This document shows positions 2,906-42,935 of a stretch of 64,000 bases of DNA, one piece after another (position 1 is the first letter of the stretch; every line of letters starts with the position of its first letter). Made by a program: the position numbers and the translations under genes. A model generated the notes under the pieces. That model worked only from the letters and a program-made list of their open reading frames with translations, did no database searches and was not told the DNA's origin. Origin of the DNA: Gammaproteobacteria bacterium (GTDB lineage: Bacteria; Pseudomonadota; Gammaproteobacteria; SZUA-140); contig JAVEZY010000001.1 in NCBI GenBank assembly GCA_034002745.1, forward strand, positions 79,428-143,427, in the 5' to 3' direction.

Positions 2906-3092
2906 ATGCAAATTTCCTGTCGACTGTGTATCGACGGGCAAAAAGGAATCTTGAGAAGCACGACACATTTTTTTTCGCGCATGGCGATCGCGATGTCGGG
3001 CCGGCGAAGGATGACGTGGTGTGGCGGGCGAATGCGTCGTGAATGGAAGTGCTGCAGATGCTATGAATAAAGGTGTTTTTGCACGCCGATTT

Positions 3093-3560
3093 CTACGTGC
3101 GACGGCTGGCGAGAGAGAGAATGAAACGCCATTCTTCGGCTTCGATCGGTGTCACGGAGAGACGGTTGCCGCGGCGCAGGATGATCAGTCCTTCCAGCTC
3201 CGGATGGCTGCGCAGTTCGTTCAGGCCGATGGGCGGATCGATGCGCTGCTGGTATTCCACGTCGACCATGAACCATCGCGGATCGTCCGCGGATGCGCGG
3301 GGGTCATGGTAGGGGCTGGCGGGATCGAGTGCCGATGGATCCGGATAGGCTTCGCGAACGATGCGCATGGTGCCGACGATGCCGGGTTGGGCGCAGCTCG
3401 AGTGATAGAAGAAGGCAAGATCTCCCGAGCGCATTGCGCGAAGATGATTCCGTGCCTGGTAGTTGCGTACCCCGTCCCAATGTTCGCGGCGATCGGGCCG
3501 GTTCATCAGGTCATCGATCGAGAAGGTCGAAGGTTCCGACTTGAGCAGCCAGTAGTTCAT
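3093..3560 (-). CDS. EVE (PUA-like) domain protein
   Basis: Internal Met MNYWLLKSEPSTFSIDDL... is the typical EVE/DUF55 N-terminus. The ATG at 3558-3560 is preceded by AGGAAGGA, and there is a 4-nt ATGA overlap with ygfA. Confidence 0.8.
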   Translation of the reverse strand: MNYWLLKSEPSTFSIDDLMNRPDRREHWDGVRNYQARNHLRAMRSGDLAFFYHSSCAQPGIVGTMRIVREAYPDPSALDPASPYHDPRASADDPRWFMVDVEYQQRIDPPIGLNELRSHPELEGLIILRRGNRLSVTPIEAEEWRFILSLASRRT

Positions 3561-4168
3561 TTCAGTGTCCTTCCTGTTCCGAACCGGTGCAGCCGCCGGT
3601 CGGTGATGCACAGATCCAGGGGAATGTCCCAGGGCGCGGCGTCGAGGGCCGCGACGCGTTGGAACTCATGGGCTACTCCACACAGTAGCGGTCGGCGCCA
3701 GGGACGCCGCCGGTTCAGAAAGGCGAGTGAGCGGTCGTAGTATCCCGCGCCCATGCCGAGCCGGTTGCCCTCGCCGTCGAATGCGACCAGCGGCACCAGT
3801 AGCAGGTCGAGCATCGAGGCCGACAAACCGCTGCCGATTCCGGCTGCCGGCTCGGGGATGCCATAGCGGTTGAAGCAGAGGCGGTCACCTGGTCGCCAGC
3901 GCAGGAATCGCAGACGGCCGGTCGGAAGAGCGTCGAGTACCGGCAGATAGCATTCCCGTCCCATGGCGTGGACGCGATGCAGCAGAGGAAGCACGTCGAT
4001 CTCGCCGTCGGCGGGAACATAGAAGGCGATCCGGCGCCGTCTGGCCAGGATGCCGCTGCCGAGGACGAAGCGCTGCAGAGCGCGGGCGGCGCGGTGCTGC
4101 GCCATCGGATCGATCGCGCGCCGCCGGGCGCGAATTTCCCGTCGCAATGCGCTGCGCGAGTGCTTCAT
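3557..4168 (-). CDS. ygfA: 5-formyltetrahydrofolate cyclo-ligase
   Basis: 203 aa with a 5-FCL fold signature (GMGAGYYDR, LPLLHRV). It sits directly downstream of the 6S RNA region, as in the E. coli ssrS-ygfA operon. Confidence 0.85.
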   Translation of the reverse strand: MKHSRSALRREIRARRRAIDPMAQHRAARALQRFVLGSGILARRRRIAFYVPADGEIDVLPLLHRVHAMGRECYLPVLDALPTGRLRFLRWRPGDRLCFNRYGIPEPAAGIGSGLSASMLDLLLVPLVAFDGEGNRLGMGAGYYDRSLAFLNRRRPWRRPLLCGVAHEFQRVAALDAAPWDIPLDLCITDRRLHRFGTGRTLK

Positions 4169-4192
4169 GGAAGGAAGGGGGGGGGCGAAACG

Positions 4193-4384
4193 AAGGGGGT
4201 ACCCTCCGCGTGCGCCGTCGGGGATCTTCGCCCTTGAACCAAAGGTTCAGGTGGGGACAATGGTGGCATCGAAGGCTTTCCGCCGTGTGCGGACTTGCGC
4301 AAAAATGCCAGCTCTCTGTCCCCTGGGCGGATGAATAGGCTCAAGAGTTGTTCAGATCCACTAACCTGCGCCGCAGGGGATACC
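4193..4384 (-). ncRNA. ssrS: 6S RNA (SsrS)
   Basis: Located between zapA and ygfA on the same strand, the conserved position. The minus-strand segment ...CACCUGAACCUUUGGUUCAAGGGCGAAGAUCCCCGACGGCGCACGCGGAGGGUACCC resembles the E. coli 6S 3' region (CACCUUGAACCAAGGGUUCAAGGG...GCGGCGGCA), and the 5' region has CUUGAGCC like E. coli CUGAGCC. The ends are approximate. Confidence 0.55.
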
Positions 4385-4411
4385 CTTGATCAAATGATCG
4401 ACCGGTTCGCC

Positions 4412-4735
4412 CTAAAAATCAATTTTTACGTTGCGGTTTTCGTCGATGAGGCTTTGCATGCGGGATTGCAGCGCGCCGAGTCGCGGCAGTACCGTCGTTC
4501 CGACTCTATCCTCGCGCGCCTGCTGCCTGAGCAGTTCGTTGGCTACGTTGAGGCCGGCCATGACCGCGATGCGATCCAGGCCGATCACCTTGCCGGTGTC
4601 CCGCACTTCCCGCATGCGTTCATTGAGGTAGCGGGCGGCCGCCAGCAGGGACTCGCGTTCCTCGGGCGGGCAGGCCACACGGAATTCCTTGTCGAGAATG
4701 CGGATCGTGACCGGCTCGACGTCGCGCTCCGTCAC
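4412..4735 (-). CDS. zapA: Cell division protein ZapA
   Basis: 107 aa (MTERDVEPVTIRILDKEFRVACPPEERESLL...) upstream of ssrS-ygfA, as in E. coli and Pseudomonas. Confidence 0.85.
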   Translation of the reverse strand: MTERDVEPVTIRILDKEFRVACPPEERESLLAAARYLNERMREVRDTGKVIGLDRIAVMAGLNVANELLRQQAREDRVGTTVLPRLGALQSRMQSLIDENRNVKIDF

Positions 4736-38661: not shown

Positions 38662-39072
38662 TCAGCGATGCAGTTCGCCTTCGGATTCGGGCTGATAGAT
38701 CACATCGAGTATCCGCAACTGCAGTTTGCGGCCGCCTGGCACCTGCCAGGAGATCGACTGGCCGACCGACAGGCCAAGCAGCGCACTGCCGACCGGCGCC
38801 AGAACCGACACGGTGCCGGCCTGTCCGCTCGCTTCGGGGTAGACCAGGGTCAACTCGAACTCCGAGCCACTTGCATCGTCGACGAAACGCACTCGCGAAT
38901 TCATGGTGACGACCCCTGCGGGCATGTCGGCGGGTTCCATGATCGTTGCGCGATCGATCTCGCGCCGCAAAGCATCGATTCCGGGCATGTGGCGGAACTG
39001 GCCTGCGTCCATGATTCGTTCGAGTCGATCCAGGTCCAGACTGGATACGACGATAGGGGTTTGTTCTGTCAT
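38662..39072 (-). CDS. rnk: GreA/GreB-family regulator lacking the N-terminal coiled coil (nucleoside diphosphate kinase regulator Rnk-like)
   Basis: Internal start MTEQTPIVVSSLDLDRLERI...; colinear with E. coli Rnk (VVTMNSRV...LVYP...APVGAALLGL..G). Confidence 0.75.
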   Translation of the reverse strand: MTEQTPIVVSSLDLDRLERIMDAGQFRHMPGIDALRREIDRATIMEPADMPAGVVTMNSRVRFVDDASGSEFELTLVYPEASGQAGTVSVLAPVGSALLGLSVGQSISWQVPGGRKLQLRILDVIYQPESEGELHR

Positions 39073-39190
39073 TCTGTCCTCGAAGCTACGTATATCCGCG
39101 TACGAACCGACGACCGTGCTTACTGACGCATCATCGCTCGTTTCCCCAAAAAAGCAAAGATAGCCGGCGGATGCCACATGGCCGGCGGAT

Positions 39191-39565: not shown

Positions 39566-39583
39566 GGCGGCGGAGCATCCTCA

Positions 39584-39811
39584 GGATGTCCCGCCGCGAC
39601 GAATCGATGCCATCGCGCCGTCCAGTGCCAGCAGTTCATGGCCATCCTTCTCCAGGCTGGATGATGCCTGTTTCGCGGCGTCTTCGGACTGGAAGACGAA
39701 GTCGACGACCTCGCCGACGGCACGCCCGCGCAATTCATGCCTTGCCTTGATGTAATGCAGCGGGCAGCCGTAGGTGCTCAGGTCTACAGGGCGGCTCCTG
39801 CCCTTTTTTTT
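39584..39811 (-). CDS. TusA-family (SirA/YedF/YeeD) sulfur-carrier domain ORF with no start codon of its own; it lies in the -1 frame immediately after the sulfite reductase stop
   Basis: Hand translation of the minus strand gives (stop)KKKGRSRPVDLSTYGCPLHYIKARHELRGRAVGEVVDFVFQSEDAAKQASSSLEKDGHELLALDGAMASIRRGGTS*. This aligns position-for-position with E. coli TusA (LDALGLRCPEPV...GE.L...D.A...DIPGF....EHELVA...YLIRKGG), including the catalytic Cys. There is no ATG, GTG or TTG between the upstream in-frame TGA and the Cys motif. Confidence 0.5.
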
Positions 39812-41877
39812 TCAGCCTGCGCACCGCCATTGATGCTCTGCAGCGAGGCGCTGAGGTCGAGCTGGCGATCGATGTCCTGGCAGGCGGCGCCAGCGGCGAC
39901 GGTCCAGGCATCGAGTTCGGCCATGAGCTCACGGTAGGTCGGCTCGTCGAAATCCGAATCGATCCGATCCAGCGTGCCGGCCAGCTTCACCAGCTGGTCG
40001 CCGAGCGACTGGTTGCCGTTCAGTGTCGCGGCGAGCTTGCCACCGATCTCGCGCAGATCCTCGACCGGAGGCTGTCCTGCCAGGAACAGCAGGGACTGTC
40101 CCACCAGACGGCCGATGGCGCGCGAGCATTCGACGGATTCCTCGTATTTGCGCTGCATCAGGAAGCCGTTGCGATAGTTGCGCTCGTTGGCGGCTTCGGC
40201 GAAGTTGGCCGCGACGGTCTCCTGCGCGGCGCCGGCGCACTCGCCGCCTCCGAACTGGAACACGCGGAAGGCCTCTTCCTGGCCGTGGTCGTTCAGCACC
40301 GAAGTCAGCTCATCGAGTGACACGGTGGCGATGTCCGCGAGCAGCTCGCCGAAGTACTCCGGCGCCTGCCGGTGGGCCCAGGCGAAGAAGGTTTCATTGT
40401 CGCTCCGGCTCTCGGCGTAGGCGGCCTGCAAGCGTTCGATCGCACGCGGTGCGCGTGCGGCCGGCACGGAGGGACCCTTGATGGCGATGTCGCCGCCGTT
40501 GCGGCCATCGCCGCCGATGTAGAACTGGTAATGCGGCACGAGCTTGCCGTGCAGCCGCTTGCCCTCGCCGTAGATTCCGATGTCTCCGGTTTCCGGCTGC
40601 GCGCAGCCGTTGTGACAGCCGCTGGCGCGGATCCGCAGATCCATGCTGCCGCCGCCGACCCGGGTGCCGATGACCTTGGAGGAAGTGATGCCCAGACGGC
40701 ACGTCGAGGTGCCGGGGCAGGAGACCACGTCATCGCCGGCCTGCGGTTCGCCGAGGCCGAGATCCGCCAGGCCTTCACGCACCGCGGCGACACGCTCCTC
40801 CGGCACGCCTACGAACATCAGGTTCTGGTCCTGGGTGCTGCGCAGATCGCTGAGGTGCTCGCGATACATCAGCGCCGCGATGCCGCGCATCTGTACGGCC
40901 GTCATGTCGCCGATGGGGATGCTGATCGGAAATACGTGAAGGCCGGGCTGCTTCTGCGCCAGCACGCGGCGCGGCGCGCCGGGATTGGTATGCACCGGCG
41001 ACGGCGTGCCGTCCCGCCATTCGCCGCGCGGGTGCGCGTGGCCGCGCAGTGCGGTGCGGGTACGCTCCAGTTCCTCGCGGTATTTTTCGACGAAACCGTC
41101 TTCTCCGAAACGATCGACCAGGAACTTGATGCGGGACTTGGCGCGACGCTTGCGATCGGAATAGCGATTGTGCAGCGAAATCACCGCTTCCACGCAGGGC
41201 ACCAGTTCCTCTTCGGTGATGAACTCCTCGATGATGATCGCCTTGCGCGGCTTGTGGCCGAGGCCGCCACCGGCGAGCAGCTTGAAGCCGTAACGGTCGT
41301 CCTTCTTCACCGCGATCACGGCGAGGTCATGAATCATGCCCTGCGCGCAATCCGACTCGCAGGCGGAAAAGCTGATCTTGAACTTGCGCGGCAGATGCTG
41401 CGTCAGCGGATGGCGCAGCAGATAGCGCATCACATGGTCCTGATGCAGTCGGATGTCGACCCGTTCACTGGGACACGCGCCCGCGAGCGGGCAGCAGCTG
41501 ACGTTGCGCACCGTGTTGTTGCACGCTTCGCGGGTGGTCAACCCGGCGCGGGCCAGTTCCCTGAGCGCCGTTGGCACCTGCGCAAGCGGCACGTAGTGCA
41601 TCTGGATGTCCTGCCGGGTCGTGATGTGTGCGTGTTCCGCCTCGGCGTGCTTGTCCAGTACTTCGGCGATGGCTTCGAGCTGGGCCGGGGTGAGATGGCC
41701 GCCGGGAATCTTGACGCGCAACATGTGTACGCCTTCCTGGCGCTGGCCATAGATGCCCTGCTGCAGCCGGATCGACTGAAAGCGCTCCGCATCGATTTCG
41801 TTGCGCAGAAACGCATTGACGCTTTCTTCGAAGCGCTCGAGTTCCTCGTGATCGACCAGTGACCGGACTTCGCTCAT
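39784..41877 (-). CDS. Ferredoxin-type sulfite/nitrite reductase hemoprotein (siroheme-[4Fe-4S], NirA/Sir/CysI family) with a C-terminal extension of about 140 aa
   Basis: 697 aa with duplicated NIR_SIR halves and the Cys cluster motifs CPGTSTC...SGCHNGC. Divergent from cysB. The C-terminal 130-140 aa (EAFRVFQFGGGECAGAAQETVAANFAEAAN...) is not part of the canonical enzyme. Confidence 0.9.
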   Translation of the reverse strand: MSEVRSLVDHEELERFEESVNAFLRNEIDAERFQSIRLQQGIYGQRQEGVHMLRVKIPGGHLTPAQLEAIAEVLDKHAEAEHAHITTRQDIQMHYVPLAQVPTALRELARAGLTTREACNNTVRNVSCCPLAGACPSERVDIRLHQDHVMRYLLRHPLTQHLPRKFKISFSACESDCAQGMIHDLAVIAVKKDDRYGFKLLAGGGLGHKPRKAIIIEEFITEEELVPCVEAVISLHNRYSDRKRRAKSRIKFLVDRFGEDGFVEKYREELERTRTALRGHAHPRGEWRDGTPSPVHTNPGAPRRVLAQKQPGLHVFPISIPIGDMTAVQMRGIAALMYREHLSDLRSTQDQNLMFVGVPEERVAAVREGLADLGLGEPQAGDDVVSCPGTSTCRLGITSSKVIGTRVGGGSMDLRIRASGCHNGCAQPETGDIGIYGEGKRLHGKLVPHYQFYIGGDGRNGGDIAIKGPSVPAARAPRAIERLQAAYAESRSDNETFFAWAHRQAPEYFGELLADIATVSLDELTSVLNDHGQEEAFRVFQFGGGECAGAAQETVAANFAEAANERNYRNGFLMQRKYEESVECSRAIGRLVGQSLLFLAGQPPVEDLREIGGKLAATLNGNQSLGDQLVKLAGTLDRIDSDFDEPTYRELMAELDAWTVAAGAACQDIDRQLDLSASLQSINGGAQAEKKRAGAAL
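39804..39812. repeat. T9 homopolymer (A9 on the coding strand) spanning the last sense codons of the sulfite reductase gene and the frame boundary to the TusA-like ORF
   Basis: Directly seen: cccTTTTTTTTTcag. In mRNA sense this reads GCU GAA AAA AAA AGG..., an A_AAA_AAA slippery heptamer followed by the rare AGG codon. Confidence 0.9.
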
Positions 41878-42014: not shown

Positions 42015-42935
42015 ATGAACTTCCAGCAGCTGAGGTATGTCCGGGAGATCGCTCGATGCGGTCTCAATATATCGGCCGCTGCCCAGGCGCTGAACACCGC
42101 CCAGCCCGGCATCAGCAACCAGATCCGCGCGCTCGAGAAGGAACTCGGCATCCAGATCTTCGAGCGCAACGGCAAGCGCCTGGTCGGCATCACTCAACCG
42201 GGGCGCGCCGTGCTGGCCATGGCCGAACGGGTGCTGCGCGAACTGGAGCACATCAGGCAGGTTGGTTTCGAGTTCACCGACCAGGCGAGCGGCAGTCTTT
42301 CCATTGCCACCACTCATACCCAGGCCCGCTATGCCCTGCCTCCCGTGATCAAGGCCTTTGCCGCCAGATACCCCAATGTCCGTCTGCATCTGCACCAGGG
42401 TGATCCGATGCAGATCGCGCAGCTTGCCGCATCGGGCGTTGCCGATATCGCCATCGCTACCGAGGGCATCGATCTGTCCGAGGATCTGGTGGTGATGTCA
42501 TGCTACGACTGGAACCACTGCGTCATCGCGCCGCCTGGCCTGCCCATCCTGCGCGATCAGCCGCTCACGCTGGAAAAGATCGCCGAATATCCCATCGTCA
42601 CCTACGACTTCTCCTTCGCTGGCCGGGTCAAGATCAACGACGCCTTCGAGCGCGCCGGACTGCGTCCGAATGTCGTTTTCTCCGCGATCGACTCCGACGT
42701 CATCAAGACTTACGTCGAGATCGGCATTGGCATCGGCCTGATGGCCAGCATGGCCTACAATCCCGAGCGTGACACCAACCTGCGCATGCTCGACGCCAGC
42801 CACCTCTTCGAACCCTGCACCACCCGCCTGGGCTTGCGCCGCGGCGCCCAGCTGCGTGGCTACATGTACGCCTTCATCGAAATGTTCGCGCCGCATCTCG
42901 ATCGGCAGACGGTGGATAGGGCGATGGCGGGGTAG
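42015..42935 (+). CDS. cysB: LysR-family transcriptional activator CysB
   Basis: MNFQQLRYVREIARCGLNISAAAQALNTAQPGISNQIRALEKELGIQIFER... is near-identical in pattern to E. coli CysB. It sits next to topA, as in E. coli. Confidence 0.9.
   Translation: MNFQQLRYVREIARCGLNISAAAQALNTAQPGISNQIRALEKELGIQIFERNGKRLVGITQPGRAVLAMAERVLRELEHIRQVGFEFTDQASGSLSIATTHTQARYALPPVIKAFAARYPNVRLHLHQGDPMQIAQLAASGVADIAIATEGIDLSEDLVVMSCYDWNHCVIAPPGLPILRDQPLTLEKIAEYPIVTYDFSFAGRVKINDAFERAGLRPNVVFSAIDSDVIKTYVEIGIGIGLMASMAYNPERDTNLRMLDASHLFEPCTTRLGLRRGAQLRGYMYAFIEMFAPHLDRQTVDRAMAG

Follow-up and report, generated by a model that had tools for sequence, protein, structure and literature searches.

What becomes of a reading frame that lacks its own start codon and lies directly behind a run of nine adenines near the 3' end of a sulfite reductase gene? 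The question is raised by a locus on the minus strand of a 64-kb gammaproteobacterial stretch of contig JAVEZY010000001.1 (hereafter the window, meaning this whole stretch), where an initial annotation had noted that an A9 run joins the end of a sulfite reductase (SiR) gene to a start-less TusA-like open reading frame (ORF) in the -1 frame. That description was borne out in every detail that could be checked. By comparison with its relatives, this one gene probably yields two proteins, the reductase alone and a SiR-TusA fusion, through a one-base slip on the A9 run. The elements involved, in window coordinates, are these:

41877..39784, minus strand: 0-frame reductase ORF of 697 amino acids (aa), the short isoform; its TAG stop at 39786..39784 lies 7 codons past the run
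39804..39812, minus strand: A9 run (T9 on the plus strand), the proposed site of a +1 A insertion or a -1 ribosomal slip
39581..39811, minus strand: -1 frame segment with the linker KKKGRSRP followed by the TusA-like domain VDLSTYGCPLHY...IRRGGTS (PF01206, E=1e-5)

Read in the sense of the minus strand, the 3' end of the gene is ...GCT GAA AAA AAA AGG GCA GGA GCC GCC CTG TAG, and the 697-aa product ends ...AQAEKKRAGAAL. The run is read in the 0 frame as G-AA AAA AAA A-GG (E689 K690 K691 R692) and holds the heptamer A_AAA_AAA. A TGA of the -1 frame at 39814..39812 overlaps the first A of the run and precedes KKKGRSRPVDLSTYGCPLHY...IRRGGTS; translated as a whole from behind this TGA to its terminal TGA stop (39583..39581), the -1 frame gives KKKGRSRPVDLSTYGCPLHYIKARHELRGRAVGEVVDFVFQSEDAAKQASSSLEKDGHELLALDGAMASIRRGGTS. 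The codon of the TusA-like Cys lies at 39766..39764 (minus strand), and no ATG, GTG or TTG occurs in the window between the upstream TGA and this codon.

The run is not a chance feature, as the window has a GC content of 64.6%, A9 is the longest homopolymer in the 64 kb and the only one of at least 7 bases inside a gene, and the lysine codons of the reductase gene outside the run are AAG in 19 of 21 cases (AAA in 2 of 21). An independent Logan assembly (L161, SRR31940687) repeats the window sequence, with an identical A9 and identical flanks. The second-longest homopolymer, a T8 run at window positions 2968-2975 (plus strand), is intergenic and lies ~45 nucleotides (nt) upstream of a 239-aa ORF (3021..3740).

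Under the recoding that we propose, standard decoding would give the 697-aa reductase without a sulfur-carrier domain, from the same promoter as the fusion, while a one-base slip on A9 would give a 765-aa SiR-TusA fusion with the junction ...AQAEKKKGRSRPVDLSTYGCP..., the TusA-like domain being made only as the C-terminus of this long isoform. An A10 mRNA and a -1 slip on A_AAA_AAA would lead to the same 765-aa protein (...AQAEKKKGRSRPVDL...), with (K)GRSRPVDLSTYGCPLHYIK as its predicted junction peptide; an A8 or A11 mRNA would encode a dead-end product of 713-714 aa. The sequence variant in which both run and heptamer are broken and the lysines retained is AAGAAGAAA. On the sequence evidence set out below, it appears likely to us that a trans-frame SiR-TusA product is expressed by way of the run.

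A protein search with the hypothetical 765-aa fusion as query returned two length classes. Fused proteins of 761-775 aa carry TusA in frame (PF01206) and are 56-75% identical to the window protein, and short proteins of 693-703 aa, without TusA, include all of the closest relatives (64-100% identical). Querying the proteins again with 141 aa around the junction, in search of further A10-type fragments, brought up just two weak partial matches that added no information. All short proteins end in (E/Q/D/V)KK plus 2-8 residues before the stop, as in AEKKRANLSI, AEKKTLRASI and EDKKKAQSSI. The recurrent terminal SI and stop correspond to TCG ATC TGA, which the -1 frame reads as aTC GAT CTG A, that is, as IDL, the first residues of the TusA domain.

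At the DNA level, a genome scan, a metagenome scan and exact look-ups (mostly the genome scan and the look-ups) recovered at least 19 short-class loci, at least 17 of them distinct, from NCBI, JGI, ENA and Logan assemblies that form coherent clades. Protein identity to the window ranges from 64 to 89% for the 17 distinct loci, whose junction carries A9 in 15 cases, A10 in L007 and A8 in L167; no other A run of at least 8 occurs in any of these loci. In 17 of 17, TusA lies in the -1 frame relative to the reductase, uninterrupted over 72-87 codons, with no ATG, GTG or TTG between the run and the catalytic Cys, and Cys-Pro-Leu-His is kept in the TusA frames of all short-class loci. The run occurs in three codon phases, namely GAA AAA AAA Axx (most loci), GTA AAA AAA AAG (L004) and GAT AAA AAA AAA GCx (L082 and L083), and in every short-class locus TusA would be brought back into frame by one extra A or by a -1 slip of the ribosome. 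The orthologues thus bear out the frame relation of the window: a conserved -1 frame with no canonical start of its own in the short class, and an in-frame fusion in other relatives. In L172 (GCA_016712635.1, JADJQS010000015.1), a separate 75-aa TusA gene has been called at 3576-3803 from an ATC start that overlaps the reductase stop, which illustrates how annotation pipelines paper over the frameshift.

Synonymous divergence (dS) between short-class loci is about 0.5-1.8. Within the TusA part, the ratio of nonsynonymous to synonymous substitution rates (dN/dS) has a median of 0.38 and ranges from 0.066 (window versus L001, dS 0.53) to about 0.44, with a median of 0.23 for the reductase part. 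In all 17 loci the TusA frame has evolved under purifying selection. At such divergence a never-translated segment would not have kept an open, conserved frame in 17 lineages, and the frame therefore appears to be translated. The -1 frame peptide just after the run, K-K/N-x-E-x-I/V-D-L, is homologous to the in-frame linker of fused relatives (L172 KKNAESIDL versus P0017 EKNAETIDL; L002 KKKPERIDL versus L006 KKKAERIDL), and its Glu codon varies synonymously between GAA and GAG.

A second layer of selection concerns the run itself. Eight invariant Lys columns elsewhere in the gene contain 111 AAG and 25 AAA codons over the 17 loci (82% AAG), none of them being all-AAA, and in L167 not one of 22 Lys codons outside the run is AAA. 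Given this preference for AAG elsewhere and the synonymous divergence of the loci, we conclude that the run is selected at the nucleotide level. The 17 loci, the selection on TusA and the in-frame 761-775-aa fusions of relatives support the recoding, by ribosomal slip or RNA polymerase slippage, that the initial annotation had put forward. The 765-aa fusion product it predicted stands as well, but the fusion is neither hidden nor unusual: SiR-TusA is a common architecture already labelled in databases, where in-frame fusions go under 'sulfite reductase beta subunit-like hemoprotein/TusA-related sulfurtransferase'.

How the two arrangements relate can be read from a neighbour-joining tree built on the reductase part. 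Frameshifted proteins fall into at least three separate groups, one ending EKKNLRA, one ending EDKKKAQSSI and a large one with the window, which sit inside a clade whose fused members have an in-frame run (KKK), A9 in L006 and L008 and A10 in L081. Nested among the frameshifted forms are fused ones in which the frame has been restored in the DNA and the run lost: L163 (P0017) has A7, equal to A9 minus two bases; L164 (P0011) reads GGAAAGAAAAAC, with one extra base and the run broken; and L162 (P0005) has no run. More distant fused relatives, L048 excepted, are likewise without a run. This pattern argues that lineages retain a long run where TusA is reached only through it, and can dispense with it otherwise. 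One fused lineage also keeps the run, where slippage would truncate the protein. The default isoform would differ accordingly between arrangements: with A9 in frame the fusion would be the default and a slip would shorten it, whereas in the window clade the reductase would be the default and a slip would extend it. The natural history is unusually clear, with in-frame A9 ancestors, at least three shifts out of frame, and reversions that dropped the run. Beta-proteobacterial homologues (Nitrosomonas, Nitrosospira, Gallionella) are about 690 aa long and naturally without TusA, which indicates that a TusA-less short isoform is a viable enzyme. A fused relative of about 54% identity, L048 (NVRQ02000139.1, from the metagenome-assembled genome (MAG) NORP163), has an in-frame A11 at the same domain junction (GTA AAA AAA AAA ATA, VKKKI), which may represent an independent origin of a slippery linker.

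Which machine slips on the run? We distinctly favour RNA polymerase slippage over ribosomal frameshifting, a choice that sequence by itself does not decide. RNA polymerase would be the main slipper and would produce A10 mRNA, as on the A9 of Thermus thermophilus dnaX and the T9 of Shigella mxiE, and -1 tandem tRNA-Lys slippage on A_AAA_AAA may make a smaller or additional contribution. The converse, that the same two isoforms arise mainly by -1 programmed ribosomal frameshifting of the Escherichia coli dnaX type, is a live alternative but seems rather unlikely. In its favour, each of the three phases of the run contains an in-frame X_XXY_YYZ heptamer (A_AAA_AAA; A_AAA_AAG in L004), the product would be identical to that of an A10 mRNA, and A-rich heptamers are classical bacterial shift sites (PMC3711429, PMC4066793). 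The site nevertheless lacks a conserved downstream hairpin or pseudoknot and a conserved upstream Shine-Dalgarno (SD)-like element. RNA folds of the flanks (60 nt downstream, 45 nt upstream) were no more stable than shuffles (z about -0.5 to +2), the upstream segment of L168 alone being an exception (z -2.07); RNAalifold gave -1.5 kcal/mol at the site, with four pairs and no covariation; and the loci share no SD-like (GGAGG-like) motif near the run, the AGGAG behind the run in the window not being conserved. Nor is the AGG codon after the run, in whose place relatives have AGA, AGC, ACN, AAT or GCC, and the dnaX-like configuration with a rare AGG that the initial annotation had invoked does not hold up. 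Efficient bacterial -1 frameshifting normally needs stimulators, and tandem tRNA slippage needs 7 nt. The length of the run stays at 8-10 nt, which roughly equals that of the RNA:DNA hybrid, though 7 would suffice for the ribosome, and in-frame relatives keep A9-A11. The want of a conserved hairpin or SD element, together with a run longer than 7 nt, fits polymerase slippage.

Some points weigh against our interpretation. An in-frame A_AAA_AAA heptamer accompanies every run phase seen, which leaves room for ribosomal frameshifting. The profile hidden Markov model PF01206 does match the 76-aa window translation (E=1e-5), as the initial annotation had anticipated, but at 25.7 bits, just under the gathering score of 28.6. 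Codon-position entropy over the 20-nt overlap, with its few sites, two spacing sub-groups and variable linker, singled out no frame, and that A9 slips, at the RNA or the ribosome level, and how efficiently, is something we infer from sequence. P0126 (764 aa; two Logan contigs, the longest 14.9 kb) shares its first 690 residues with P0124 (696 aa), after which it reads KSRGRPVDLTTFGCP..., and P0150 (774 aa) is residue for residue the +1A product of L170/P0022; both lie inside 90%-identity clusters of short forms. Heritable A10 variants, assemblies of RNA origin and errors are all conceivable explanations for them, and DNA-level switching may contribute. Taken to its full extent, such switching would make the run a contingency locus, toggled heritably by replication slippage between A9 (reductase only) and A10 (fusion) with little or no fusion made from A9 genomes. 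We consider this quite improbable, even with those exact +1A versions in hand and with homopolymers being slippery for DNA polymerase too (PMC3711429). Among the frameshift-clade clusters inspected, roughly 3 contigs are fused versus about 68 in the A9 state (about 71 in all), and in the in-frame-A9 clusters 0 of about 15 are truncated; the out-of-frame state stayed stable while dS reached about 1; a TusA domain that is rarely in frame would decay, yet it is under purifying selection throughout; and a core assimilatory enzyme whose 'OFF' product is a complete, functional reductase is atypical of phase variation. The rarity of the A10 state and the long-term stability of A9 make classical phase variation unlikely as the main mode. 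Very improbable, too, is that TusA is translated alone as a protein of ~70 aa, by re-initiation or from an ATC or CTG start near the reductase stop, with the A run incidental. The stop of the 0 frame does share bases with the opening codons of TusA (..ATC GAT CTG A..), the called gene of L172 starts at just such an ATC, and in the window AGGAG stands 13 nt before a CTG. Against this, none of the 17 loci offers an ATG, GTG or TTG, the window has GTA in place of ATC, and the AGGAG is not conserved; a lone TusA would also leave unexplained the nucleotide-level conservation of the run, its loss exactly in the lineages with a restored frame, and the likeness between the -1 frame linker upstream of such a start and the linker of fused relatives. 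Homopolymers are error-prone and fused genes are commoner in the family than unfused ones, so a 1-base sequencing or assembly error in a gene that is in truth fused, or a recent frameshift that left a TusA pseudogene, had to be considered, as it had been in the initial annotation. We rejected both and find them scarcely credible: the same run and frame relation recurs in 17 distinct loci from four sources and in coherent clades, the independent assembly L161 agrees with the window, and all TusA ORFs are intact with dN/dS (about 0.07-0.44) well under 1 at a dS of about 1.

Pfam assigns the 697-aa product to NIR_SIR (E=3.5e-45) and NIR_SIR_ferr (E=4.4e-32); it has two NIR_SIR_ferr + NIR_SIR repeats and the C-x5-C...C-x3-C ligands of a [4Fe-4S]-siroheme centre, which are invariant (C387, C393, C421 and C425, in SCPGTSTC...GCHNGC). 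By these sequence features the short isoform is predicted to be a ferredoxin-type siroheme sulfite/nitrite reductase (NirA/Sir). The nearest PDB structures are plant nitrite reductases when ranked by sequence and Mycobacterium tuberculosis NirA (1zj8) when ranked by fold (E=3e-25), and all its NCBIfam equivalog scores are far under cut-off, which marks it as a separate subfamily. An AlphaFold2 model of the 765-aa fusion, made from a 47-sequence alignment (mean predicted local distance difference test score, pLDDT, 80.7), divides as follows:

residues about 1-505: reductase core (AlphaFold2 model), of which about 40-505 make up the siroheme/[4Fe-4S] sulfite/nitrite reductase region
residues about 549-683: helical C-terminal domain (AlphaFold2 model), with no Pfam or PDB sequence match
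residues 683-694: disordered interdomain linker (AlphaFold2 model, pLDDT<50), the site of the A run
residues 698-760: beta-alpha-beta-alpha-beta-beta domain (AlphaFold2 model)

Since the run falls in a disordered linker between folded domains, both products should fold. Foldseek aligned the modelled TusA-like domain to E. coli TusA from the IscS-TusA complex (3lvj_C; template modelling score 0.73, root-mean-square deviation 2.6 A, 23% identity) and to YhhP (1dcj); YeeD (8k1r) was matched locally and more weakly. A profile built from the domain matches TM0983 (1jdq; E=0.007), and a precomputed PF01206 match is present on the fused homologues. Cys-Pro is invariant in the domain, but in place of CPxP the motif reads CP(L/V)H(Y/F), with His substituted for the second Pro. 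We regard the domain as a divergent TusA-like, predicted sulfur-carrier domain, and it is a guess that its Cys would accept or deliver sulfur at the siroheme site. Separately, an invariant loop Q-(F/L)-GGGEC-(A/S)-GAAQE (residues 541-553, with Cys547; window about 40240-40275, minus strand) is modelled with low confidence. Cys584 and Cys666 are, with Cys547, conserved in the region of the helical C-terminal domain, and the loop and these two residues could form a second sulfur-handling or redox site.

Two neighbours of the reductase gene bear on its function:

42015..42935, plus strand, divergent from the reductase: CysB-family LysR regulator (NCBIfam NF009327, 480 bits versus a cut-off of 402)
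38662-39177, minus strand, two genes downstream of the reductase: Rnk/Gre-family gene, 'nucleoside diphosphate kinase regulator' (NF004396, E=6e-46)

The same CysB-family neighbour is found in L161, L162 and L165-L171. In one sub-clade a TauE/SafE-family (PF01925) membrane protein precedes the reductase (L163 684-1472, L164 654-1439, L172 657-1442), and in L172 a gene for 3'-phosphoadenosine 5'-phosphosulfate (PAPS) reductase follows it (3839-4546). This context of CysB and, in relatives, TauE and PAPS reductase suggests sulfite assimilation, with the choice of sulfite over nitrite as substrate taken from context alone. The Rnk/Gre-family gene keeps its position one or two genes downstream in L161 (5806-6216), L162 (3980-4390), L165 (4308-4718), L166 (4000-4413) and L167 (4271-4681). 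Gre-family proteins bind the secondary channel of RNA polymerase, and a link of this neighbour to slippage is conceivable; equally, it may be plain synteny.

A more far-reaching possibility is that slip frequency is regulated, that the two isoforms cooperate and that the TusA Cys acts in the manner of DsrC; as a joint claim, this is decidedly doubtful. Sub-stoichiometric SiR-TusA would then assemble with or beside the TusA-less reductase, like tau and gamma in the clamp loader, and the isoform ratio would be tuned by sulfur status or by transcription conditions such as nucleoside triphosphate pools or Rnk. The TusA Cys would capture a siroheme-bound sulfur intermediate or deliver a protein-bound thiosulfonate, as DsrC does for dissimilatory sulfite reductase, and assimilatory sulfite reduction would be linked to persulfide trafficking. 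Short of such regulation, the TusA-like domain in the window clade is apparently carried by only a fraction of the reductase molecules, and this favours a carrier or regulatory function over an obligatory catalytic one.

For annotation, the consequence would be that about 40 database clusters now listed as 'nitrite/sulfite reductase' of ~695 aa, with orphan TusA fragments, represent two-product genes. To our knowledge, conserved recoding in non-mobile bacterial genes is rare (dnaX, prfB, mxiE and a handful more), and a core sulfur-assimilation enzyme would join that short list. A literature search found no paper that pairs transcriptional slippage with sulfite reductase, or TusA and a frameshift with sulfite reductase, and turned up no account of recoding in either gene. 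The case is absent from the main text of Antonov 2013 and of the Atkins 2016 review, the supplementary tables of GeneTack and recoding surveys having been outside the search. What would be new is recoding in a sulfite reductase/TusA gene; the type of recoding (dnaX, mxiE) and the SiR-TusA fusion are already known.

Among known recoded genes, E. coli dnaX (A_AAA_AAG) resembles the window in its slippery Lys-codon heptamer and in isoforms that differ by their C-terminal domains, but it has an SD-like element upstream and a stem-loop downstream, and no counterpart of either is conserved at the window site. Closer is dnaX of T. thermophilus, whose A9 is an experimentally established slippage site at which about 50% of the product is non-standard (PMC1088944). 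As in the window, a sense-strand A9 sits close to a domain boundary in the late part of the gene, the isoforms differ by a C-terminal domain, alternative-frame stops are close by and no RNA stimulators are needed. The long Thermus product is the 0-frame one, however, and slippage truncates it, whereas the window would need slippage for its long product; the in-frame A9 relatives L006 and L008 have the exact Thermus dnaX-like configuration. The genes differ as well, dnaX encoding a replicase subunit and the window gene a metabolic enzyme known here from its sequence. Like SiR-TusA, dnaX orthologues reach the same two products with another frame arrangement, one-ORF and two-ORF versions coexisting, the latter with A10 in Antonov 2013 (PMC3711429). 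The in-frame SiR-TusA proteins of Thiotrichaceae, Chromatiaceae and other gammaproteobacterial MAGs are orthologous to the window protein (56-75% identical) and share its order of SiR core, helical domain, linker and TusA with GCP(L/V)HY; they differ in using a single frame and, for the most part, in having no A run in the linker.

For the direction of the slip, the nearest counterpart is mxiE of Shigella flexneri, in which two overlapping ORFs are fused by one nucleotide inserted at T9 during transcription (PMC1088944). Here, too, the upstream ORF ends shortly past the run, the downstream ORF is start-less and one non-templated base makes the fusion (PMC1088944). The short product of mxiE is thought to be non-functional, so that slippage sets the level of an activator, whereas the short product of the window gene is a complete enzyme, and both products are therefore probably used. 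While mxiE is confined to one plasmid-borne virulence locus, the sulfite reductase case is conserved across a broad environmental clade of gammaproteobacteria.

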